A stretch of DNA of 64,000 nt. Source: Escherichia phage vB_EcoM-CHD94UKE2. The first letter of the stretch is position 1. Every line of letters begins with the position of its first letter. Positions 1-62,190 of this stretch are shown one piece after another. The position numbers and the translations under genes are program-made. Below the pieces are notes generated by a model. That model was given only the letters and a program-made list of their open reading frames with translations, searched no databases and was not told the DNA's origin. The DNA lies in sequence record MZ234031.1. One strand, 5' to 3'.

Positions 1-969
1 ATGAAAACTGTAACTATCAATAAGGGTATCTACTTCGGTAAAGAAATCTCTGGAACTTTTGAGCTCTTAGGTGAATGGTTCCCAGATAATGCTCCGGTAG
101 ATGCACAAGGAGATGGTAAAGTTTTTGTTGAAATTGACGGTAAGCGTCGCGGTGTTTGGGTTTACAAATCAGACATTTCATATGATGGTGTAAAAGTTGA
201 AGAAGTTAAAGAATCATATGAAGATATGAAAACCCGCATTAATAAAAGATTTAATGTTATGGGAATGATGACGAATGGTATTATTAACGGAAACATTCGT
301 TCATTAATTATCTCTGGTGCGGCGGGTATTGGTAAAACGTATTCTTTAGATAAAGCTTTGAATAAAGCAAATGATAATGGATACATTGAATATAAAAGCA
401 TTAACGGTAAAATCTCCGGTATCGGTCTTTATGAACAACTTTGGAATAATCGTGAAGAGAATTCTGTCCTTTTGATTGATGATGTGGATGTTTTCTCTGA
501 TATGGACATTCTTAATCTTCTGAAAGCTGCTCTGGACACTGGAGAGACCCGTAAAGTCTGCTGGAGCACCGCATCTTCTTACTTAGAAGAAAAAGGCATT
601 GAGCGTGAGTTTGAATTTAAAGGAACGATTGTTTTTATCACAAACGTTGACATTGACCGCGAATTAGACCGTGGTACTAAACTTGCTCCACATTTACAAG
701 CATTAGTGTCCCGCTCGGTTTATTTGGATTTGGGTGTTCACACTAATGAAGAAATTATGGTCAGGGTTGAAGATGTTATTCTTTCAACTGACATGATGCA
801 AAAGCGCGGTCTTTCTGATGAAGAAACTTATAAAGCATTATCATGGATGAAAGTTAATGTTAATCGTTTACGCAATGTTTCACTGCGTACTGCTCTTTAT
901 CTTGCTGACTTTATTATGACCGACAAAAACGGTTGGGAAGAAATTGCTGAGGTTACTCTTCTGAAATAA
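1..969 (+). CDS. P-loop NTPase (AAA-like ATPase), nrdC-upstream region protein
   Basis: 322-aa ORF from ATG at window position 1 (5' end may be cut by window edge); Walker A GAAGIGKT and Walker B LLIDDVD. Confidence 0.6.
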   Translation: MKTVTINKGIYFGKEISGTFELLGEWFPDNAPVDAQGDGKVFVEIDGKRRGVWVYKSDISYDGVKVEEVKESYEDMKTRINKRFNVMGMMTNGIINGNIRSLIISGAAGIGKTYSLDKALNKANDNGYIEYKSINGKISGIGLYEQLWNNREENSVLLIDDVDVFSDMDILNLLKAALDTGETRKVCWSTASSYLEEKGIEREFEFKGTIVFITNVDIDRELDRGTKLAPHLQALVSRSVYLDLGVHTNEEIMVRVEDVILSTDMMQKRGLSDEETYKALSWMKVNVNRLRNVSLRTALYLADFIMTDKNGWEEIAEVTLLK

Positions 970-1070
970 TTCATAAGAGGACTTCTATGACAAAAAGGCA
1001 GTTCAGAAATAGATTATATGGACTGCCATTAAAAAGATGACTAGAATTAAACTGGTGAATGGAGGTAATG

Positions 1071-1373
1071 ATGTTATACTCAAAGGCTCGTGAAATTTAC
1101 GAAACTAAAATTAAAGAAGCAGTATTTAAGTTCGCAACGACAATGCGATGGACAAATGACTGGGAGTATTCAAAAAATCATAAGAAGCCCATGGTGACAA
1201 GAAAGGCTCATATGTTAGTGTTAATAGACCGTGAGCAGATTAAAGCCCGAGAAGCCCTCCAGAATCATAAAAAGGCTGCCTTTGAATGGTTTATGGATAA
1301 CACTGCTCCTGAGACTAAGAAAGCGGTAAGCGCATGGTTCAGTGGAAAAAATTGTGAAAGAAGTTTCTTTTAG
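1071..1373 (+). CDS. hypothetical protein (~100 aa)
   Basis: ORF 1059-1373; ATG at 1071 is 5 nt after GGAGG; start choice uncertain. Confidence 0.4.
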   Translation: MLYSKAREIYETKIKEAVFKFATTMRWTNDWEYSKNHKKPMVTRKAHMLVLIDREQIKAREALQNHKKAAFEWFMDNTAPETKKAVSAWFSGKNCERSFF

Positions 1374-1375
1374 TG

Positions 1376-1405
1376 GTTTACAAGACTGTTCCTCTGTGGT
1401 ACTAT
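1376..1405 (+). promoter_or_regulatory. T4-type early promoter (GTTTAC-N18-TACTAT)
   Basis: -35 GTTTAC 1376-1381, -10 TACTAT 1400-1405; near-identical copy at 27491-27520. Confidence 0.6.
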
Positions 1406-1433
1406 ACAACTATCAACTACGGAGGAACACAAA

Positions 1434-1961
1434 ATGAACGCTAAAGATATTTTCAACCTGGTAAATTACAACGATGGTAAATTTAAATCTGAAGCACAAA
1501 GTAAGTTCTTTAATGACATCTCAATCGAAGGTGAAATCACGGTTGACGGAGGACAAATTTACAAATCTCGTTGGAATTGGATCGTTATTATCGATGAGAT
1601 TGGTATTGTAGAAATTTACAAGAATACGAATAAAAATCGTACATTACACTGGTCTCGTGATACTAACGAACAGTACAAAAAGGATAAAGCATCTAAATTA
1701 TCTCGTGTAACTCAAGAAGATATTGAGTTCATCAAGAAAGATATTTTGATGTATGATAACTTAATTGCTGAAGAGCAAGCTGTTATTGATAAATTTGATG
1801 AGATTAAAGCTTCTCGTGAAATTCCTGATTTTATGAAAGAATCAGTAAATGAACGATACACTCTCATTTCAGAGCGTATTGAAACTTACAAAAAGCAAAG
1901 AGCTGAACGCCAGAATACTCTTCGGAAGTTTGAAGAACGGTTAAAGACGGTACTCGCATAA
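1434..1961 (+). CDS. hypothetical protein (175 aa), C-terminal helical region
   Basis: ATG preceded by GGAGG; downstream of early promoter. Confidence 0.55.
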   Translation: MNAKDIFNLVNYNDGKFKSEAQSKFFNDISIEGEITVDGGQIYKSRWNWIVIIDEIGIVEIYKNTNKNRTLHWSRDTNEQYKKDKASKLSRVTQEDIEFIKKDILMYDNLIAEEQAVIDKFDEIKASREIPDFMKESVNERYTLISERIETYKKQRAERQNTLRKFEERLKTVLA

Positions 1962-2016
1962 CCGCTTTATACCAAGGATGGTATAATGGTTCTAAGCCCT
2001 TTTAATTGAGATTATT

Positions 2017-2424
2017 ATGAAACAGTTGATAATTAAAAGATTGAATTTATTGATATGTTGTTTATGTATAGCAATTGCATATGGTTATTACGCAATTAAT
2101 GATTATATGCATTATAAAGATTATGATGTTACTGTAGTTAATACCATTACAGGAACACAAGGAAAAGGGTCTAGTTTATCGTTTATTGCCGTATATGAAC
2201 TCAAAGATGGTTATAGATTTAGTGAATATATTTCCCCAGAGATGTATTCATCAATAGAAAAAGGTGATAATATTACTGTAAGTTTACGTCCTTTCGACGT
2301 AAAACAGACATTGTTTGATAATATTGTTTGGTTCTTTGGAATGGTATTAGTTCAATCTGTGTGTGGTGCTTATATAGTCTGTTCCATCTTATTCTGTATA
2401 TTTAGTAAAATTGAAATTGAGTGA
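2017..2424 (+). CDS. hypothetical membrane protein (135 aa)
   Basis: ORF with N- and C-terminal hydrophobic segments. Confidence 0.5.
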   Translation: MKQLIIKRLNLLICCLCIAIAYGYYAINDYMHYKDYDVTVVNTITGTQGKGSSLSFIAVYELKDGYRFSEYISPEMYSSIEKGDNITVSLRPFDVKQTLFDNIVWFFGMVLVQSVCGAYIVCSILFCIFSKIEIE

Positions 2425-2431
2425 GGAAAAT

Positions 2432-3319
2432 ATGTCAGTAGTAATTAATAATGTCAATGCAGTAATTAAATCTTTAGTTAATAAAAAATTAAATGAATGG
2501 ACTGTACTTCGTCGTGGAGAGCCAGATAAATTTTTTCATAGATTTAACCCAACTTTGGATTTGAATGTTATTGACAGAGATGTTCATGCTGAAATTTTAG
2601 ATAAATTTAAAGTTGATATTGGGTTTGGGTTAGATAAACATTTGCAACGAACAAACGGATCTGGAATGGGTTTATCTAATCGCATCATGAAAGCCCTTAA
2701 TAAAATTGGAGCGTTGTCTCGTATTAATGCGAGTGAAATCCTTCGCAATTATAATAAAGGATATGACCTTTATGGTCGACTAATGCCGAAATTATCATTT
2801 GACCAAATGATTGCGGATTTGTGGGAAAATCAACGACGATTATTAGCATTAGGCGCTCGATTAGCTAAAGGTCTAGATAAACAAATGATTTTTAAGACCA
2901 ATAATACAGAAGACCTTAAATGCTTTAAATTTAGTACTCGTGGAGATGATTATTACATCAGAGCTCGCTCTACAGATTATGTTAATATGGGGCATCATCT
3001 CTGTTTAGCTTTTGAAGTTTTAAAAGAAGCCGGAACATTAGAATATGTGTCTGGTGCTAAATGTCCGATTGGTTCAAATTGCATTTTAATTTATCGCCCA
3101 GATGAATCCAGTTCAACTAAATTACCTACAAAACCTGTACCAGTTCGCAGTAATGAAAAACATTCTGAACAAATTGCTTATTTTAATAAGCAGATTGAAG
3201 AGCTAAATATTTCTATTCAGCAATATGATGATGAAATTTTCAGACTATCTGGATTGAGTAGTAAAGCTAAATCTGAGCGTGAAAAATTAATTAAAATCGT
3301 TGATTTACTTAAATCTTAA
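2432..3319 (+). CDS. hypothetical protein, paralogue A of a 4-gene array (295 aa)
   Basis: ATG 2432 after TGAGGAAAAT; C-terminal amphipathic helix; ORF-track start 2411 is TTG. Confidence 0.55.
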   Translation: MSVVINNVNAVIKSLVNKKLNEWTVLRRGEPDKFFHRFNPTLDLNVIDRDVHAEILDKFKVDIGFGLDKHLQRTNGSGMGLSNRIMKALNKIGALSRINASEILRNYNKGYDLYGRLMPKLSFDQMIADLWENQRRLLALGARLAKGLDKQMIFKTNNTEDLKCFKFSTRGDDYYIRARSTDYVNMGHHLCLAFEVLKEAGTLEYVSGAKCPIGSNCILIYRPDESSSTKLPTKPVPVRSNEKHSEQIAYFNKQIEELNISIQQYDDEIFRLSGLSSKAKSEREKLIKIVDLLKS

Positions 3320-3327
3320 GGAACACC

Positions 3328-4356
3328 ATGAAAACTCGTTCTCAAATTGAAGATATGGTTCGTAATGCCAGCTATACTCGTGATGTTATGACATTTTTGT
3401 GTGAAAATAATTTAGACCCTGATAAAGTTAATCGTGTTATTCATCACTTTAAGTATACGAATAGCAGTGAATGGGTGCGTAATTTTAGTAAAGCAGGGTA
3501 TATTACACAAATGACTGCTCGTGAACAGCTCACCGATTTCTGTAAAACTATTGATTATAAAAATCCTTTGATTGTTCAAGGCGTTGGTCAAAGTAAGGTC
3601 GATTTATCATCTGGATTTTTCAATCCAAATCATTATCGTATTGAATGGAGATTTATTGCTCTATTCCGTAAACAATTAAAGCAAATTTTGTCTACTGCTA
3701 GTCGATTAAAAGGCTCTGATATTAACTTAAAGAACCTGAAATTTGATGGTTATACTCTTCAGATGGAAGTAAGACCGTTAAAAGAAAATAATAGAACTGC
3801 ACGAATTAGCTTTAAGCCTAATACTAAAAATTCTCTTTCAATTTGTGAATGTCTTAAATCACAGCTGACAGAAGCATTTAAGTATATGGATGTTGTTGCT
3901 GCTGTTCAATCTAAGATTTTACCTCGTTTTGAGCGAAATTGGGAACATACAACAACATATGAACTTGATATGATCGTTTCATTTAAATATGAATTTTTGA
4001 GAAAGGATGAAATTGTTCAAGAGAAAAAGCAGGAAGTGCAAGATACCTTAAATTTAAATTTATCCAATTACTTATCAAACGATCCTAAATTTTGGATGTA
4101 TAGCTCAAGCAATATAGATGCATGTAAACTTAATAAAGTGAGTTTTCTTCCTACTGAAAATTCAAATTTTAAACCTGTAGAAAAATGGCACGCTGACGCG
4201 ATTGAGAAGTCTCTTAAGGCAGTAGATGATGAACTCGTTAAAGCGACCAATGAAGTGCTAGAAGCTGAAAAGGCGTTAGAACAAGCTCAGTCAAGGGTTC
4301 AAAATCTGACAAAGCAACGTTCTAAACTGAACAATGCACTAAATGCACTGAACTAG
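3328..4356 (+). CDS. hypothetical protein, paralogue B (342 aa)
   Basis: AAGGAA SD; N-terminus MKTRSQIEDM; C-terminal coiled-coil-like segment. Confidence 0.6.
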   Translation: MKTRSQIEDMVRNASYTRDVMTFLCENNLDPDKVNRVIHHFKYTNSSEWVRNFSKAGYITQMTAREQLTDFCKTIDYKNPLIVQGVGQSKVDLSSGFFNPNHYRIEWRFIALFRKQLKQILSTASRLKGSDINLKNLKFDGYTLQMEVRPLKENNRTARISFKPNTKNSLSICECLKSQLTEAFKYMDVVAAVQSKILPRFERNWEHTTTYELDMIVSFKYEFLRKDEIVQEKKQEVQDTLNLNLSNYLSNDPKFWMYSSSNIDACKLNKVSFLPTENSNFKPVEKWHADAIEKSLKAVDDELVKATNEVLEAEKALEQAQSRVQNLTKQRSKLNNALNALN

Positions 4357-4385
4357 TTTACTTTGCCACAAGGATGTGGTATAAT
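4356..4385 (+). promoter_or_regulatory. T4-type early promoter (GTTTAC-N18-TATAAT)
   Basis: -35 GTTTAC 4356-4361, -10 TATAAT 4380-4385, upstream of ATG 4414. Confidence 0.6.
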
Positions 4386-4413
4386 GTTTTTACTTTCTAC
4401 TGAGGAGATTATT

Positions 4414-5415
4414 ATGACTCGTAACGAATATATCAAATCATTCAATAGCGTTATTGATGATAAAGCTATACCGATGTTTGGCCAAAATAGCGTTCTTTCT
4501 ATTATCAATCAATGGCTCAATAGTGTTGATGCAAGTATTGTTTCTTCTACTAAATTTATTCATGAAATTCGTAAAATTTCTAGCCGTGTAGATAAAGATG
4601 TTATCAAGAAAACCTTTAAAGAGTCTCGTCTTCTTTCATATTTGGTTAATCGGGATATTCTTGGTAATTTTGGGAAAGAAATTAAACGAACTAAAGATGT
4701 AGTAGGATACAATTGGTTCGGTGATGTTAATTCTTATCATCTTAATATTAAAGAAGACCCTGAGAATATTTTTACTCGTCGTTGGATCAGTAATTTCAGA
4801 CTTTTTAAGAAACAAATTCTAAAATCAGCTTCTAAATTATGTTATGGCGATTATCGTCAAATTCATCCTTTGGCTTCTGATATGATTATCATAAAAGAAT
4901 ATGAACTTGATAAAAATAAAGTATCTATTTTTGTGAATTATGGATTTTTTACACCAGAAACTAACCAAAAGAATATTAATAAATTTTTCTCAATTGCTAG
5001 CACTATAACTCGTCAATTAGAGACCGCATTACTTTGTATGGAAACAGTAGAAAATATTCATACATATCCTTTTAAGAATATATGCGGTTGGGAAGGATAT
5101 AAACTCGTAATTAGCCTTCGTGAAGTGAAATGTGCTTATTCACCTACTGATAAAGAAATTTACCAACAAAAATGTGATGAAATTGTGAATACTCCTAAAG
5201 AAGAAACTACCCTTGAGGAACTAATGGAATGTCTTGATGATTCACCTGAACCGATAGAAATTCGTCCAGAAGTTATTGCACTAGAAAAAGCTTATAAAGA
5301 AGTTCTAGAAATTTCTAATAAAGCGCAGAAAGAATATGAGCAGGCTAAAAGGATTTGGGAAGAATCTGTTAATCGTCTTGATCGTCTGGAACAAGCTTTA
5401 CAGTTAATTAAGTAA
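4414..5415 (+). CDS. hypothetical protein, paralogue C (333 aa)
   Basis: ATG 4414 after GAGGAG; ORF-track start 4363 lies inside the promoter; C-terminal coiled-coil-like segment. Confidence 0.55.
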   Translation: MTRNEYIKSFNSVIDDKAIPMFGQNSVLSIINQWLNSVDASIVSSTKFIHEIRKISSRVDKDVIKKTFKESRLLSYLVNRDILGNFGKEIKRTKDVVGYNWFGDVNSYHLNIKEDPENIFTRRWISNFRLFKKQILKSASKLCYGDYRQIHPLASDMIIIKEYELDKNKVSIFVNYGFFTPETNQKNINKFFSIASTITRQLETALLCMETVENIHTYPFKNICGWEGYKLVISLREVKCAYSPTDKEIYQQKCDEIVNTPKEETTLEELMECLDDSPEPIEIRPEVIALEKAYKEVLEISNKAQKEYEQAKRIWEESVNRLDRLEQALQLIK

Positions 5416-5467
5416 TTTAAAGCCAAGGATGGCTCGGAGTATAAATCATTAACCAAGTGAGAAGAAC

Positions 5468-6394
5468 ATGAAAACTCGTAAACATTATATTGATTATTTT
5501 GACAGTCTTATTACTAAACATCGTAATTATCAGATAGGACACAGAGCAGTAATCAATAATATTCTTCGTGATTTTTTAGACTATATTGGATGGGAAAACC
5601 ATATTTGTAAAGATACACAAAATGCGTATTCACATTCTCTTGGTTCTTTGCTCGAGTGGTTCAAACGTTCCCGATTACTATCTTCTGTGATAGCTGTTAA
5701 TAATGTTAAAAAATTTATGTATCCAAGCTACATTGAGACTAATGTATCAAATGCTAGTGTTGTTACATTTAATATTATTAACGACGTGAAAAGAACTTAT
5801 TTAGAAGAATGGTTTTCTAAAGATAGTAAAGAAAAATTTGCTAGTGAATTTTCACACGAATTCAATAATAACGTGAATATGCTTTTTAAGCATTCTCGTA
5901 GACTGTTTTGTCATGGTGATAACCGTACTATTAATGTGAATGTAAAAGACTGGGTTACGGCTAAATTCACTCCATCGTCCCAGAATGGGCAATTTGAATT
6001 GTCAATTATCATTTGTGCTCCGCACGAGATATATAAAAACCTTCCGTATATGAAACCACGCGAAGCTAATAAACACAATGAAACTATTAGTTCTTTGGCT
6101 TATAATTTACGCGTGTTATTATCTGATATGGATGTAGTCAAATCCTTTGATGATAATACGAATTATGGTCTTTCGCTGTTTGAAACTAAATTTGTTATTA
6201 AATTAAAGGACCCTAGTGAATTTAAACCTACACCAAAATCCAATCATGGAAATGATACTATGAAAGAAGAACGCGAATATCTCAGTGCCCGTTTGATTGA
6301 AGTTGAAAAACAGATTGAAGAGCATACTAAAGTTCTTAAGGCTTTAACCGCCAAAGCAAATGGTTTACGTAATGCTATTGAGGTATTGAAATGA
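5468..6394 (+). CDS. hypothetical protein, paralogue D (308 aa)
   Basis: N-terminus MKTRKHYIDYF resembles paralogue B; C-terminal amphipathic helix. Confidence 0.6.
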   Translation: MKTRKHYIDYFDSLITKHRNYQIGHRAVINNILRDFLDYIGWENHICKDTQNAYSHSLGSLLEWFKRSRLLSSVIAVNNVKKFMYPSYIETNVSNASVVTFNIINDVKRTYLEEWFSKDSKEKFASEFSHEFNNNVNMLFKHSRRLFCHGDNRTINVNVKDWVTAKFTPSSQNGQFELSIIICAPHEIYKNLPYMKPREANKHNETISSLAYNLRVLLSDMDVVKSFDDNTNYGLSLFETKFVIKLKDPSEFKPTPKSNHGNDTMKEEREYLSARLIEVEKQIEEHTKVLKALTAKANGLRNAIEVLK

Positions 6395-6780
6395 AAAAGC
6401 GTTTATTAGAAGACATTGCAGCTTCAAGTAATTCCAGTTTAATTAAAATTATTATGGCTGGTGAGGAAGATGATATGGAAATGCGTGGAAAGATTCACGG
6501 CTGCGACGATTTAGATTTTAAACCTCCAGCATGGGATGCTATTATGGCTATGGTTGAACGACGTGAAAGAGCTTCTAAAAACGTTCCTAATTGCCCTGAA
6601 TGCGGTACTGAACAAGTTCAATTGATTAACTGGCGTAAACCAGAGCTTGAATATAAATGCCGTCAATGTAAACATAAATTCAGTAAGCATGCTCCGGAAA
6701 TGGTTAAATTGCCTGACTCTACTGAGTTCTTTAAAGAACTTGTGAGTGTTCAACCAATGCCTAATAATATTTTGGATTAA
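6391..6780 (+). CDS. zinc-ribbon protein (129 aa)
   Basis: CPECG...CRQCKH four-Cys motif; ATGA overlap with upstream gene. Confidence 0.55.
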
Positions 6781-6782
6781 AA

Positions 6783-7025
6783 ATGACCAAGCGTAAAGAA
6801 TATATGGAGGCTGCTGAAAAGGCAGTCCGTGAATTAGCAATAGCTTATTATAATGAACATGGTAAATTTCCTGATAGATACAGCGTGCTTAAATCTGCTT
6901 TAACTCGTTCATATAAAAATATGCTATCAGAAGTAAGTGATATTATATACAAACATAAAGAACAAACGGGCCAAAGTCTTGATTACGACGAGACTTTTAA
7001 ACAAGTACTAGGAATTAAGGAATAA
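6783..7025 (+). CDS. hypothetical protein (80 aa)
   Basis: ORF immediately upstream of nrdC. Confidence 0.45.
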
Positions 7026-8539: not shown

Positions 8540-9013
8540 ATGTTATTGACTGGCAAATTATACAAAGAAGAAAAACAAAAATTTTATGATGCACAAAATG
8601 GTAAATGCTTAATTTGCCAACGAGAACTAAATCCTGACGTTCAAGCTAATCATCTTGATCATGACCATGAATTAAATGGACCAAAAGCAGGAAAGGTACG
8701 TGGATTGCTTTGTAATCTCTGCAATGCTGCAGAAGGTCAAATGAAGCACAAATTTAATCGTTCTGGCTTAAAGGGACAAGGTGTTGATTATCTTGAATGG
8801 TTAGAAAATTTACTTACTTATTTAAAATCCGATTACACCCAAAATAATATTCATCCTAACTTTGTTGGAGATAAATCAAAGGAATTTTCTCGTTTAGGAA
8901 AAGAGGAAATGATGGCCGAGATGCTTCAAAGAGGATTTGAATATAATGAATCTGACACCAAAACACAATTAATAGCTTCATTTAAGAAGCAGCTTAGAAA
9001 GAGTTTAAAATGA
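8540..9013 (+). CDS. 49: endonuclease VII (Holliday-junction resolvase)
   Basis: 157 aa, MLLTGKLYKEEKQ..., Cys cluster; matches T4 gp49 by recall. Confidence 0.9.
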   Translation: MLLTGKLYKEEKQKFYDAQNGKCLICQRELNPDVQANHLDHDHELNGPKAGKVRGLLCNLCNAAEGQMKHKFNRSGLKGQGVDYLEWLENLLTYLKSDYTQNNIHPNFVGDKSKEFSRLGKEEMMAEMLQRGFEYNESDTKTQLIASFKKQLRKSLK

Positions 9014-10827
9014 CAATTGAAAAAGAAATTGAAGGATTGATTCATAAAACTAATAAAGACCTTTTAAACGAGAATGCTAATAAAGATTCTCGTGTTTTTC
9101 CAACTCAACGGGACCTTATGGCTGGTATTGTGTCTAAACACATTGCCAAAAATATGGTCCCGTCTTTTATTATGAAAGCGCATGAAAGCGGAATTATTCA
9201 TTTCCATGATATTGATTATTCCCCTGCTCTTCCATTTACTAATTGTTGTTTAGTAGATTTAAAAGGAATGCTTGAAAACGGATTTAAGCTTGGTAATGCA
9301 CAGATTGAAACTCCTAAATCAATTGGCGTTGCTACTGCAATTATGGCGCAAATTACTGCACAGGTTGCTTCTCACCAATACGGCGGAACGACTTTTGCTA
9401 ATGTAGATAAAGTACTTTCTCCTTATGTTAAACGCACCTATGCAAAACATATTGAGGATGCAGAAAAATGGCAAATCGCTGATGCGTTAAATTATGCTCA
9501 ATCTAAAACAGAAAAAGATGTATACGATGCATTCCAAGCTTATGAATATGAAGTAAATACTCTCTTTAGTTCAAACGGACAGACTCCTTTTGTAACAATT
9601 ACATTTGGTACGGGAACTGACTGGACTGAACGAATGATTCAGAAAGCAATTCTGAAAAATCGTATTAAAGGTCTCGGTCGTGATGGGATAACTCCTATTT
9701 TCCCTAAGCTTGTTATGTTCGTTGAAGAAGGCGTTAATCTTTATAAAGACGATCCGAACTATGATATTAAGCAGCTTGCTTTAGAGTGTGCAAGCAAAAG
9801 GATGTATCCTGATATTATTTCAGCTAAGAACAATAAAGCTATCACCGGCTCATCTATTCCTGTTTCTCCAATGGGTTGCCGCAGTTTCTTGAGCGCGTGG
9901 AAAGATTCAACCGGTAATGAAATTCTTGATGGACGTAATAATCTTGGTGTTGTAACACTGAATCTTCCTCGTATTGCGTTGGATTCTTATATTGGAACAC
10001 AGTTCAATGAACAGAAATTTACTGAATTGTTCAATGAGCGAATGGATTTATGTTTTGAAGCTTTGATGTGTAGAATTAGTTCCTTAAAAGGAGTTAAAGC
10101 GACTGTTGCTCCTATTCTTTACCAAGAAGGTGCATTCGGGGTTCGTCTTAAACCTGATGACGACATAATTGAGTTATTTAAAAACGGTAGAAGTTCAGTG
10201 TCTTTAGGATACATTGGTATTCATGAATTGAATATTCTTGTCGGTCGTGATATTGGACAAGAAATTTTAACTAAAATGAATGCTCGTCTTAAACAGTGGG
10301 CTGAAAGAACTGGGTTTGCTTTTAGTTTGTATTCGACTCCTGCTGAAAACCTTTGTTATCGCTTCTGTAAACTTGATACAGAAAAATATGGAAGTGTAAA
10401 AGATGTTACCGATAAAGGATGGTACACTAACAGTTTCCATGTTTCAGTAGAAGAAAATATTACTCCGTTTGAAAAGATTTCTCGCGAAGCCCCATATCAT
10501 TTCATTGCGACAGGTGGTCACATTTCTTATGTTGAACTTCCTGATATGAAAAATAACCTAAAAGGTCTTGAGGCTGTCTGGGATTATGCTGCACAACATT
10601 TAGATTATTTTGGTGTTAATATGCCAGTAGATAAGTGTTTTACATGCGGAAGTACCCATGAAATGACTCCTACTGAAAACGGATTTGTTTGTTCTATTTG
10701 TGGAGAAACTGATCCTAAAAAGATGAACACAATAAGAAGAACATGCGGCTATCTTGGAACTCCTAGCGTTGTTCCATGGAATTTAGGTAAAATGAAAGAA
10801 ATGGTAAAACGAGTAAAACATGCATAG
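9010..10827 (+). CDS. nrdD: anaerobic ribonucleoside-triphosphate reductase NrdD (uninterrupted)
   Basis: 605 aa continuous ORF, C-terminal glycyl-radical motif RRTCGYLG; no intron. Confidence 0.95.
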   Translation: MTIEKEIEGLIHKTNKDLLNENANKDSRVFPTQRDLMAGIVSKHIAKNMVPSFIMKAHESGIIHFHDIDYSPALPFTNCCLVDLKGMLENGFKLGNAQIETPKSIGVATAIMAQITAQVASHQYGGTTFANVDKVLSPYVKRTYAKHIEDAEKWQIADALNYAQSKTEKDVYDAFQAYEYEVNTLFSSNGQTPFVTITFGTGTDWTERMIQKAILKNRIKGLGRDGITPIFPKLVMFVEEGVNLYKDDPNYDIKQLALECASKRMYPDIISAKNNKAITGSSIPVSPMGCRSFLSAWKDSTGNEILDGRNNLGVVTLNLPRIALDSYIGTQFNEQKFTELFNERMDLCFEALMCRISSLKGVKATVAPILYQEGAFGVRLKPDDDIIELFKNGRSSVSLGYIGIHELNILVGRDIGQEILTKMNARLKQWAERTGFAFSLYSTPAENLCYRFCKLDTEKYGSVKDVTDKGWYTNSFHVSVEENITPFEKISREAPYHFIATGGHISYVELPDMKNNLKGLEAVWDYAAQHLDYFGVNMPVDKCFTCGSTHEMTPTENGFVCSICGETDPKKMNTIRRTCGYLGTPSVVPWNLGKMKEMVKRVKHA

Positions 10828-11650
10828 GTATTATATAATTTATAAAATAACAAATATAATTAATTCAAAGGAATATATCGGTGCGCATAGCACCGATAAC
10901 ATAAATGACGGTTATATGGGGTCAGGAACATTGATTCGTGCCGCTTTATTAAAATATGGTAGAAAAAATTTTAATAAAGAAATTTTACATGTTTTTGATA
11001 ATGAAAAACAAATGTATGATAAAGAAGCTGAACTTGTAACCGAAGAGTATTGTCTAAAAGAAAATACATATAATATTAAACCTGGTGGAAAAGGTGGAAC
11101 TGCTTATGAACAGACACTTGAACATCGCCACAAAAATAGTTTAGCAAATAAAGGTAAAAAGAAAACAGCAGAAACTAAAATAGCTATTTCACGTGCTTTA
11201 AAGAAATATAAACGTACACCAGAGCATCAAGCAAATTTAAATAAAGCTGTAAGCATAGCTATGAAGCGAAAAGATGTTAGAAGTAAATTAGTTGGAGAGC
11301 GGTCTGAGAAAGATAAATTATCTATATCAAACGGTGTTAAAAAATATTACAATTCTTTGAGCGAAGAAGAACGCGAACTTCATCGCAAGCGAATTATTGA
11401 AGGTAAAAAGAATTCTCCCATGTCATTGGAATCTAGACAAAAGCTTTCAAAAGCTTTAAAAGGACTTCAAGTTGGTTCAAAAAATCCAATGTATGGAAAA
11501 ATTTCTCCAACTAGTAAAACCGTTTCAGTTGACGGTATTAAATATGATTCAATTAAAAAGTGCTCAAATGCCATAAAAGTTTCTAGACATCTTATACTGA
11601 AACGCTGTAATTCTACTGATGAAGCTTGGAAAAATTGGATATTATTATGA
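10820..11650 (+). CDS. free-standing GIY-YIG homing endonuclease (SegH-like by position)
   Basis: 276 aa; YIIYKITN...KEYIGAHS GIY-YIG core, C-terminal NUMOD-like basic repeats; overlaps nrdD stop and nrdG start. Confidence 0.8.
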   Translation: MHRYYIIYKITNIINSKEYIGAHSTDNINDGYMGSGTLIRAALLKYGRKNFNKEILHVFDNEKQMYDKEAELVTEEYCLKENTYNIKPGGKGGTAYEQTLEHRHKNSLANKGKKKTAETKIAISRALKKYKRTPEHQANLNKAVSIAMKRKDVRSKLVGERSEKDKLSISNGVKKYYNSLSEEERELHRKRIIEGKKNSPMSLESRQKLSKALKGLQVGSKNPMYGKISPTSKTVSVDGIKYDSIKKCSNAIKVSRHLILKRCNSTDEAWKNWILL

Positions 11651-12173
11651 ACTATGACAGAATATACCCGTGCTGCTTTGTGAATGGTCCTGGATGCAGG
11701 ACCGTTCTTTTCGTGAATATACCCGTGCTGCTTTGTGAATGGTCCTGGATGCAGGACCGTTCTTTTCGTTACAGGTTGTTTGCATAAATGCGAAGGGTGT
11801 TATAATAAATCAACATGGAATGCTAGAAATGGTATTCCATTCACTGGTGAAACACTAGAACAATTAATTGAATGTTTGAATAATGATTATATAGAAGGAT
11901 TAACTATAACCGGAGGTGACCCTCTTTATCCTGATAACAGAGACGTGATTCATTGCATCGTTCAAACAGTAAAAAAATCTTTATCCCAATAAAAGCATTT
12001 GGTTGTGGACAGGATATAAGTTTGAAGATATTAAACAACTAGAAATGCTTAAATATGTTGATGTTATTATTGATGGAAAGTATGAGAAAAATCTTCCGAC
12101 TAAAAAGCTGTGGCGAGGATCAGATAATCAGCGACTTTGGTCAAATACCTATGGGGTGTGGAAACATGATTAA
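11647..12173 (+). pseudogene. nrdG: nrdG (anaerobic RNR activase) disrupted by 55-bp tandem duplication and +1 frameshift
   Basis: MNYDRIYPC... start at 11647; radical-SAM CLHKCEGC in second frame (ORF 11735-11992); conserved SIWLWTGYK...WRGSDNQ C-terminus in third frame to stop 12171-12173. Confidence 0.8.
11660..11769 (+). repeat. perfect 55-bp tandem duplication inside nrdG
   Basis: 11660-11714 identical to 11715-11769. Confidence 0.95.
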
Positions 12174-12293
12174 ATTGAATTATATTATATTATGGATACT
12201 ATAAATGATATGATTTTTCATTTTGGTCCAGAATTTTATTCCCAATATAGTTTAGTGCTTATCAATGCTTGGTTAATTAATTAAGGGTAAAAT

Positions 12294-12509
12294 ATGTATA
12301 AATTTCGTAAAGGTTTAGCTGATTTTCTTACAACTGTAACATTCTTTCTGTTTATGGCAGTTGGAGCTATTTTCCTTATTCCTTTTATTGCTATATTTTT
12401 CGTGATTAGTTTAATTTCTCCAGAAAAGGGCTTATCTTCTAGTGAGTTTAATGAGCGTCTGGATAAAATTACTAACAAGCTGAATGCTGTTCTTGATAAA
12501 AAGGCTTAA
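12294..12509 (+). CDS. hypothetical membrane protein (71 aa)
   Basis: one long hydrophobic segment, AAGGG SD. Confidence 0.45.
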   Translation: MYKFRKGLADFLTTVTFFLFMAVGAIFLIPFIAIFFVISLISPEKGLSSSEFNERLDKITNKLNAVLDKKA

Positions 12510-16519: not shown

Positions 16520-17722
16520 ATGAAAGTATGTATTTTTATGGCTCGAGGTCTTGAAGGTTGCGGTGTAACTAAATTTTCTCTTGAGCAGCGTGATTGGTTT
16601 ATTAAAAATGGTCATGAAGTAACTTTGGTTTATGCTAAAGATAAATCATTTACTCGTAATTGTGCGCATGATTATAAATCATTTTCAATTCCGGTTTTAT
16701 TAGCAAAAGAATACGATAAAACACTTAAGCTGGTAAATGATTGTGATATTCTAATTATCAATTCAGTTCCTGCTACTTCGGTTGAAGAAGACACTATTAA
16801 TAACTATAAAAAAATTATTGATAACATTAAACCTTCTGTTCGTGTTGTAGTTTATCAACATGACCATTCTTCTCTTTCTTTGCGCCGAAATTTGGGATTA
16901 GAAGAAACTGTTCGTCGAGCTGATGTTATTTTTAGCCATTCTGATAATGGTGATTTTAATAAAGTTCTGATGAAAGAATGGTATCCTGAAACAGTTTCTC
17001 TGTTTGATGATATTGAAGAAGCACCGACAGTATATAACTTTCAGCCTCCTATGGATATTGCGAAGGTTCGGTCAACCTACTGGAAAGATGTTTCTGAAAT
17101 TAACATGAATATCAACCGTTGGATTGGTCGTACGACTACATGGAAAGGTTTTTATCAGATGTTTGATTTTCATGAAAAACATCTTAAACCTGCAGGACTA
17201 AGTACTATTATGGAAGGTCTGGAACGTTCTCCAGCGTTCATTCCTATTAAAGAAAAAGGAATTCCATACGAGTATTATCGTCTTCATCAAGTAGACCAAA
17301 TTAAAATTGCTCCTAATTTGCCAACGCAAATTCTTGACCGTTATGTAAATAGCGAAATGCTTGAACGCATGAGTAAATCCGGATTTGGTTATCAGCTGAG
17401 TAAGTTGGACAAAAAATATCTACAACGTTCTTTAGAATATACTCATCTCGAGCTTGGTGCATGTGGAACAATTCCTGTTTTCTGGAAATCTACTGGCGAA
17501 AATTTAAAATTCCGTGTTGATAATACTCCTTTGACCTCACATGATAGCGGTATCATTTGGTTTGATGAAAATGACATGGAATCAACATTCGAGCGTATTA
17601 AAGAATTGTCATCTGACCGAGCTCTTTATGACCGTGAGCGAGAAAAAGCATATGAATTTTTGTATCAGCATCAAGATTCAAGCTTCTGTTTTAAAGAACA
17701 GTTTGACATTATTACAAAATAA
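16520..17722 (+). CDS. agt: DNA alpha-glucosyltransferase
   Basis: 400 aa, MKVCIFMARGLEGCGVTKFSLEQRDWFIKNGHEV...; matches T4 a-gt by recall. Confidence 0.9.
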   Translation: MKVCIFMARGLEGCGVTKFSLEQRDWFIKNGHEVTLVYAKDKSFTRNCAHDYKSFSIPVLLAKEYDKTLKLVNDCDILIINSVPATSVEEDTINNYKKIIDNIKPSVRVVVYQHDHSSLSLRRNLGLEETVRRADVIFSHSDNGDFNKVLMKEWYPETVSLFDDIEEAPTVYNFQPPMDIAKVRSTYWKDVSEINMNINRWIGRTTTWKGFYQMFDFHEKHLKPAGLSTIMEGLERSPAFIPIKEKGIPYEYYRLHQVDQIKIAPNLPTQILDRYVNSEMLERMSKSGFGYQLSKLDKKYLQRSLEYTHLELGACGTIPVFWKSTGENLKFRVDNTPLTSHDSGIIWFDENDMESTFERIKELSSDRALYDREREKAYEFLYQHQDSSFCFKEQFDIITK

Positions 17723-61407: not shown

Positions 61408-62190
61408 TTATACTCTTGGACCATATATTGCTCCAACATTTTGCCATGTTGGAGCGGACCCTATGACAGCATAACCAGCAGCGCCGCCATTATATTCAGA
61501 TCCTTGACCGCGAATATTGCATCTACCTCCCGCGGAACCTACTTCACCACCGTTTCCACCATTATAGATACCATTCACGGATCCTGAGCCAGGTGCAGAA
61601 ATAGTACCGCCAGTCGCGCCTGATTGCATATCAATAGATCCTCCTGGCGCACCAAAAGGACGACCGCCACCACCACCAAAGGTCAATCTCATTTGTGAAA
61701 AAGGAGAATAATATCCGCCGCCGCCACCGCCGCCACCGCCTGCAATAGCTCCGCCATTATTAATTCTTAGTCTCCCACCAATATCGTTTTGAATACAATG
61801 ACCTCCAGCTGAGCCAGGACTATTGCTACCGCCATTACCTCCACGACCATACATCGTTACGCCATGTATATTTAACTGAACATATTCATTTGGTGTATCT
61901 CCGTACATGAAGAATAAAGGAACATCTTTAGAATAAGAAACGATATCACCAACAATATTGAATACAATAGGTGCACCGCCAGCTTCAAAGCATCTATCAC
62001 GGAACCACTGACCATTAAAATTGTGGTTTGCTCCTACAGTATGAATAATTTCTCGTGAGCGACCTGCAAATTGACTCATCCAGCAAGGAACACCCAATCT
62101 TAATTGACCAGCCGCTTGACTCATCCAGCGCTGTCCTGTTTCATTTGCGGCTGAACTTCCAATCCAACCAGGAACACCAACTACTGCCAT
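61408..62190 (-). CDS. 38: tail-fibre adhesin gp38 (T2-type, glycine-rich motifs)
   Basis: 260 aa with poly-Gly blocks ([26 protein letters not shown]) separated by variable segments. Confidence 0.75.

Follow-up and report, generated by a model that had tools for sequence, protein, structure and literature searches.

The nrdG gene of Escherichia phage vB_EcoM-CHD94UKE2 (hereafter CHD94UKE2) carries two lesions in its GenBank record, a perfect 55-bp tandem duplication and one surplus A in a homopolymeric run, and our comparison of this locus with those of sibling and descendant phages makes it highly probable that the duplication is an artefact of assembly and probable that the extra A is genuine. 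A first-pass annotation, which was made from the letters alone, had described nrdG as broken twice; two lesions are indeed present in the record, but we recognize only one true inactivation, that by the extra A, with the duplication being a likely assembly error. Overall, the locus presents an ordinary nrdG pseudogene together with a database error, and there is nothing new beyond the flagging of two likely database errors.

Reading frames of nrdD and nrdG

The stretch of DNA analyzed here (the window) comprises the first 64,000 nt of GenBank record MZ234031, and all positions refer to it unless stated otherwise. The complete CHD94UKE2 genome has 167,922 bp (Table 1 in Loose et al. 2021, PMC8614997) and is that of a T6-like Tequatrovirus with the gene order 49 - nrdD - segH - nrdG - 55.9 - 55.8 - nrdH. 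It belongs to a set of genomes that were assembled from MiSeq reads using SPAdes 3.13.0/3.14.1 (PMC8614997).

The nrdD gene is intact and includes its glycyl-radical site, as the first-pass annotation had stated: the frame is uninterrupted, its product ends in ...RRTCGYLG..., and this product matches full-length NrdD models (NF006732, 902 bits; TIGR02487, 565 bits) as well as PF13597 and PF01228. The nrdG gene, which encodes the NrdD activase, is annotated as three CDS in MZ234031 (Table 1), and the three frames are arranged as described earlier. Specifically, the frame from the ATG at 11647 reads MNYDRIYPCCFVNGPGCRTVLFV and, as 55 is not divisible by 3, stops after 46 codons, giving only a 46-aa product that crosses the duplication junction and has its own GenBank entry (QZI80959.1). 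The motif GCLHKCEGC, which includes the radical-SAM CX3CX2C cluster CLHKCEGC, is in frame only past the second copy of the 55-bp unit in the ORF at 11735-11992, and the run of seven A residues (A7) shifts the conserved C-terminus (IWLWTGYKFEDIK...WRGSDNQRLW) to a third frame. Thus, no uninterrupted NrdG frame is found in the record, in which A7 ends the frame at 11992 and the 55-bp repeat shifts the frame too. If one 55-mer and one A are removed, nrdG becomes a single ORF of 156 codons that matches NrdG from end to end (TIGR02491, score 196 bits at a cutoff of 126.1, with residues 2-148 aligned to positions 1-153 of the 154-position profile; PF13353, 163 bits). The repaired product thereby has the 156 aa of the NrdG of T4/T6 (TIGR02491), is collinear with T6 NrdG, shares the CLHKCEGC cluster, and is encoded at the same locus downstream of nrdD; unlike in T4/T6, nrdG of CHD94UKE2 has a +1 A after codon 91 as well as the surplus 55 bp in the record.

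Table 1 Features of the nrdD-segH-nrdG region in the window
Feature	Coordinates	Strand	Remarks
nrdD, anaerobic (class III) ribonucleotide reductase	9010..10827	+	Intact, 605 aa, intron-less, glycyl-radical motif RRTCGYLG
segH, free-standing GIY-YIG homing endonuclease gene, 276 aa	10820..11650	+	T6 record labels the syntenic gene segH
nrdG (NrdD activase) as recorded	11647..12173	+	Three frame pieces: 11647-11787, 11735-11992, 12003/12045-12173
segH-linked nrdG 5' patch	11647..11702	+	13/56 nt differ from the segH-less sibling allele; next 153 nt identical
55-bp unit, copy 1	11660..11714	+	nrdG nt 14-68
55-bp unit, copy 2	11715..11769	+	Either copy may be surplus; a SPAdes contig-end overlap (k=55) left untrimmed is the most likely origin
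A7 run, one A above the A6 of intact alleles	11971..11977	+	+1 insertion; NrdG frame ends at 11992 after 91 native residues

The 55-bp duplication and its distribution

The perfect repeat reported in the first-pass annotation is present in the window: the unit GAATATACCCGTGCTGCTTTGTGAATGGTCCTGGATGCAGGACCGTTCTTTTCGT, which begins with GAATATACCC and ends with TTCTTTTCGT, is followed directly by an exact second copy (TRF score 220, 100% match), such that the junction reads ...GGACCGTTCTTTTCGT/GAATATACCCGTGCTG... (the slash marks the boundary between the copies). Because it is the only exact tandem repeat with a period of 15-300 in the 64 kb, we do not ascribe it to chance. We detected no microhomology at the junction, and this speaks against slippage or recombination, which would usually show some. 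Both lesions had been said to lie within 20 bp of the 3' end of the GIY-YIG endonuclease gene; this is accurate for the duplication, which starts 10 bp past the last base of the segH stop codon (11650), but not for A7, which lies 321 bp downstream.

To place the duplication among its relatives, we rely on two groups of genomes, i.e. sibling isolates and phages bred from CHD94UKE2 and other ancestors. In a BLAST search of phage records, the siblings G3F7 (MZ234035) and G3F10 (MZ234038) covered the same query in 846 bases vs 901 in the window, and both match the window without a mismatch for 50 kb to the left and to the right of the duplication and have a single copy of the 55-mer. Across the full 64 kb, the window differs from G3F10 only in the additional 55 bp and one SNP (at 61694), and the total length of the CHD94UKE2 genome is that of G3F10 plus 55; G3F7 differs from the window over the 64 kb by a 28-bp indel in addition to the duplication. 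Markers specific to CHD94UKE2 extend across 11546-11702 in the bred phages PM105, PM108, and PM123, which, therefore, inherited this exact segment, yet each has only one copy of the 55-mer. Hence, the heritability that is expected of a break-repair scar is not observed in the three bred progeny with this locus, and the suggestion that the duplication arose as a repair scar is unlikely in view of siblings and descendants in which the same segment is single-copy. We note that a tandem duplication can possibly collapse by recombination, so that the single copy in the descendants is strong evidence but short of absolute proof.

The junction was also absent from all 817 matching records in a collection of 50,697 phage records, and the junction 32-mer GGACCGTTCTTTTCGTGAATATACCCGTGCTG had no match in IMG/VR, metagenome contigs, or GTDB genome contigs. 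Exact-protein look-ups of the products of the nrdG pieces in the window returned nothing, and the same type of look-up with SegH returned one Logan contig from an unrelated run, in which nrdG is intact.

Origin of the duplication

From its length and its distribution, the 55-bp duplication is most likely an assembly artefact, i.e. a contig-end overlap left over from SPAdes. The default k series of SPAdes is 21, 33, 55, 77, 99, and 127, and the repeat, with its two identical copies (55 bp, 100%), has exactly the length of one of these values. Artificial overlaps of 127 bp at the ends of SPAdes contigs have been described as an artefact that is to be removed (PMC5923482, PMC9331655). Because the Tequatrovirus records of the CHD94UKE2 submission that we examined all begin at the same gene, the contigs were rotated. 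We suggest the following sequence of events: given a genome that is circular or circularly permuted, SPAdes would output a contig with the last k bases repeated at both ends; this contig would then be rotated to the start gene of the sister genomes with the overlap left untrimmed; and an internal 55-bp tandem repeat (k=55) would result, landing by chance in nrdG, while the phage DNA would be single-copy. From this, we infer that k=55 was the final k in the assembly of CHD94UKE2. In common with SPAdes contig-end overlaps in other phage assemblies, the repeat is perfect, equals a k of the assembler, and is missing from the genomes of relatives; whereas a typical overlap sits at the contig ends and is trimmed, that of CHD94UKE2 would have been re-oriented first, making it internal and gene-breaking and leading to its annotation as three CDS.

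Overlaps of this kind appear to recur in the same pipeline. In the record of G3G7 (MZ234040), positions 66463-66716 inside gene 37, which encodes the distal long tail fibre, are taken up by a perfect tandem duplication of 127 bp, while the sibling G3G6 has one copy of the 127-bp unit, and the lengths of the two genomes differ by exactly 127. The duplication would truncate gp37 of G3G7 at residue 258 of 995 and splits gene 37 into two overlapping CDS. G3G7 served as a plaque-forming ancestor in the breeding experiment and had the best kinetic host range (PMC8614997). Because G3G7 forms plaques although the essential gene 37 is broken in its record, the 127-bp duplication cannot be real and almost certainly results from a SPAdes overlap (k=127) that was not trimmed. 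For two perfect tandem duplications that both have SPAdes default lengths, a biological origin is very unlikely.

Several considerations weigh against an assembly artefact. First, lengths of 55 and 127 imply that SPAdes settings or versions differed between genomes, yet this is plausible given that two versions were used. Second, we roughly estimate a chance of ~1-2% that a random contig break would fall this close to the boundary of a homing-endonuclease gene. Third, a scan of the whole of the small genome of 101118UKE1, which is from the same batch, detected no such artefact. We also considered that a branch in the de Bruijn graph between mixed genotypes might have caused the contig break but rejected this explanation because no examined allele differs at the positions that flank the 55-mer (nrdG nt 13 and 69).

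The alternative that the duplication is real in the sequenced CHD94UKE2 stock, having arisen by misrepair of a SegH break or by slippage in an already dead nrdG, appears quite improbable to us. Its position is in its favor, because it not only begins close to the segH stop but also overlies the segH-linked divergent patch at the 5' end of nrdG, and a second lesion would have been costless in a gene already inactivated by A7. SegH reportedly cuts near its own gene, its own genome included. In addition, the homing endonuclease SegB drives tandem amplification in T6 (PMC13096335). The SegB case shares with CHD94UKE2 a tandem repeat beside a seg gene in a T6-like phage; however, the repeat unit there has 718 bp, the junction shows microhomology, there was selection by a defence system, and the proof came from PCR and long reads (PMC13096335), whereas the unit in CHD94UKE2 has 55 bp, its junction lacks microhomology, a selective rationale is missing, and the descendants are without the extra copy. 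Besides the missing microhomology, a real duplication is opposed by a length that is exactly a k of SPAdes, the very assembler that was used, by the single copy in G3F7, G3F10, and the three descendants with the segment, and by the 127-bp counterpart from the same submission, which is demonstrably an artefact. A more specific version, in which the duplication is a very recent scar of self-cleavage by SegH and imprecise repair that was present in the sequenced stock but missing from the sub-population that donated to the bred phages, strikes us as very improbable; if true, it would be a natural case in which a free-standing homing endonuclease harms the DNA next to its own gene.

An untrimmed overlap, which we consider the most likely source of the 55 bp, has consequences for users of these data. 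MZ234031 and MZ234040 both appear to hold such overlaps, by which nrdG and gene 37, respectively, are made to look broken. More generally, a perfect tandem repeat in a re-oriented phage genome calls for suspicion ahead of any biological interpretation if its length is 55, 77, 99, or 127 bp.

The extra A in nrdG

Based on its presence in four separately sequenced genomes, A7 is probably a true +1 insertion of the lineage rather than a homopolymer miscall. T6 and PM105 have A6 at this position of nrdG. Among the 655 matching records, A7 occurs only in G3F7, G3F10, and PM123, and the remaining 652 have A6 and a plain ORF. The records of G3F7, G3F10, and PM123 all annotate nrdG as two CDS and, because the split is thus already visible in sibling records, the break in nrdG is already public.

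PM123 is particularly informative because it is a bred recombinant with a different backbone: its sequence agrees fully with the window between 10732 and 12076, its flanks are 2-4% diverged, and 11% of its coding regions derive from CHD94UKE2 (PMC8614997). In a marker analysis of 10051-12412, for which the window was set beside PM105, PM108, PM123, G3G7, and 101117BS1, the CHD94UKE2 tract of PM123 (~10746-11987) includes A7, while PM105 and PM108 switch parent before 11911 and have A6; similarly, bred phages with a patch from another ancestor have A6 in the same local context. Because A7 thus lies in the PM123 tract and A6 in PM105/PM108, the extra A co-segregates with the SNPs of the parents across independently prepared Illumina libraries. 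Moreover, in a tblastn search with 89 T6 ORFs against the window, nrdG was the only frame-broken gene, by which we ruled out platform-wide homopolymer noise. The window contains another A7 at 16808-16814, inside the span of a-gt as annotated in the sibling record, where we detected no frame break. The A7 allele of nrdG had no match in IMG/VR.

These observations bear on the possibility that both lesions are errors, with A7 having been miscalled or propagated and nrdG of the phage being intact at 156 codons. We regard this as improbable. It is true that a single laboratory and pipeline produced all four A7 genomes, that the submission has other doubtful features, including the 127-bp duplication of G3G7 and a 28-bp frame-breaking indel in gp38 of G3F7, and that the reference read mapping described in the methods (PMC8614997) could spread an error. 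Nevertheless, miscalls in 6/7-mers are rare on the Illumina MiSeq, A6 was recovered in an identical context of +/-20 nt in five bred phages from the same runs, A7 in PM123 travels with CHD94UKE2-specific SNPs, and none of the other genes among the 89 is frame-broken. Besides a repair scar and relaxed selection, the first-pass annotation had listed an assembly or homopolymer error among the possible causes of the lesions; the former most likely applies to the duplication, as an error of the contig-end overlap kind, but a homopolymer miscall probably does not account for A7. It had also set its reading against an outcome in which reads show a single copy of the 55-bp unit and no extra base, and we expect only half of this outcome, i.e. 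the single copy, with A7 remaining.

We further considered that A7 might be a recoding or slippage site from which full-length NrdG is made by +1 ribosomal frameshifting or by transcriptional loss of one A. Low-level slippage is generally possible on homopolymeric A, and the frame downstream of A7 is fully open and conserved; however, an open downstream frame is equally expected of a recent mutation, and a plain ORF with A6 is seen in 652 of the 655 related records. Slippage by -1 on A_AAA_AAA would lead to the wrong frame, such that only a +1 shift or the loss of one A restores NrdG, and we saw no stimulatory element or other sign of programming. We give recoding a next to negligible probability.

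If A7 is a true insertion, as we consider probable, the phage would carry a dead activase gene beside an intact nrdD and would rely on the aerobic class Ia RNR or, possibly, on NrdG of the host. A survey found that many phages have nrdD without nrdG (PMC3653736). A one-base frameshift in a dispensable activase gene is an ordinary and unremarkable pseudogene.

segH and its spread in the bred phages

The stop codon of segH overlaps the ATG of nrdG (ATGA). The segH product scores above the cutoff for NUMOD3 (28.1 bits, cutoff 20.4) and below the cutoffs for PF19835 (SegE-type GIY-YIG; 18.6 vs 25), TIGR01453 (47.3 vs 56.05), and I-TevI_DNA-bd (19.4 vs 27). Judged from a nucleotide identity of ~97%, the gene in the window appears to be a clear ortholog of the annotated segH of T6. 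It also resembles the SegH system of T6/U5-type phages (Sandegren, Nord & Sjoberg 2005) in occupying the same nrdD/nrdG locus at this level of identity and in entering segH-less genomes together with flanking DNA in mixed infection; the endonuclease is unchanged in comparison with that system, and what differs is that the co-conversion tract carried a dead nrdG into PM123. Two residues of the product are altered by the differences in the segH-linked nrdG patch (CCF for CDF and RT for RV), and the patch is possibly a candidate for the target or recognition sequence of SegH or for an immunity polymorphism.

Among the four myovirus ancestors of the breeding experiment, CHD94UKE2 alone has segH; in the other three (CHD16UKE1, G3G7, and 101117BS1), nrdG directly follows nrdD. 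By contrast with this one-in-four occurrence, segH DNA is present in all six bred phages, as seen from matches to a query that includes the 3' end of segH, and the exact SegH protein is encoded in PM105, PM108, and PM123, among others. The share of CHD94UKE2 in the coding regions of the bred phages is 1-11% (PMC8614997). The CHD94UKE2 tract around segH spans ~10101-11702 in PM108 and the same interval plus a second patch (12077-12278) in PM105; overall, co-conversion reaches ~0.1-0.7 kb to the upstream side and 0.05-0.35 kb to the downstream side, with a patchy pattern in PM105. Spread of segH together with its flanks is what one would expect in mixed infection from a gene for a homing endonuclease, and homing goes unmentioned in the paper on the breeding experiment (PMC8614997). 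A mildly useful by-product of the present analysis is, therefore, the observation that segH passed from one ancestor to all sequenced progeny, once dragging along a dead nrdG allele.

Additional observations in the window

Directly past the nrdG stop, the window has a 5-bp insertion (ATTAT, 12179-12183) relative to T6 and PM123 that is also present in PM105; it abolishes the T6-type start of 55.9, which restarts at the ATG at 12192. In addition to the 55-bp repeat, TRF reported an imperfect 22-bp tandem repeat at 4297-4338 (1.9 copies, 80% match). In the region of the window that corresponds to nrdC.1-nrdC.10 of T6 (1-7025), GenBank gives each of 10 adjacent CDS of the sibling genomes (record MZ234035) the name 'thioredoxin', which looks like an annotation-transfer error.

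Two observations concern gp38, which is encoded on the minus strand at 61408-62190. At position 61694, the window has T, giving Q166, vs C in G3F7 and G3F10, giving R166. A Q166R difference between PM123 and CHD94UKE2 in a tail-fibre CDS was described as a spontaneous mutation that occurred during breeding (PMC8614997); Q166R is already present in the sibling isolates G3F7 and G3F10. Because the window departs from both siblings in gp38 exactly as published for CHD94UKE2, we discarded the idea that it is an altered copy of G3F7. Finally, G3F7 lacks 28 bp of gp38 (61605-61632) that are kept in the window and in G3F10, with the result that its gp38 adhesin gene is split into two CDS; this loss may reflect either a true deletion or a further problem of assembly.
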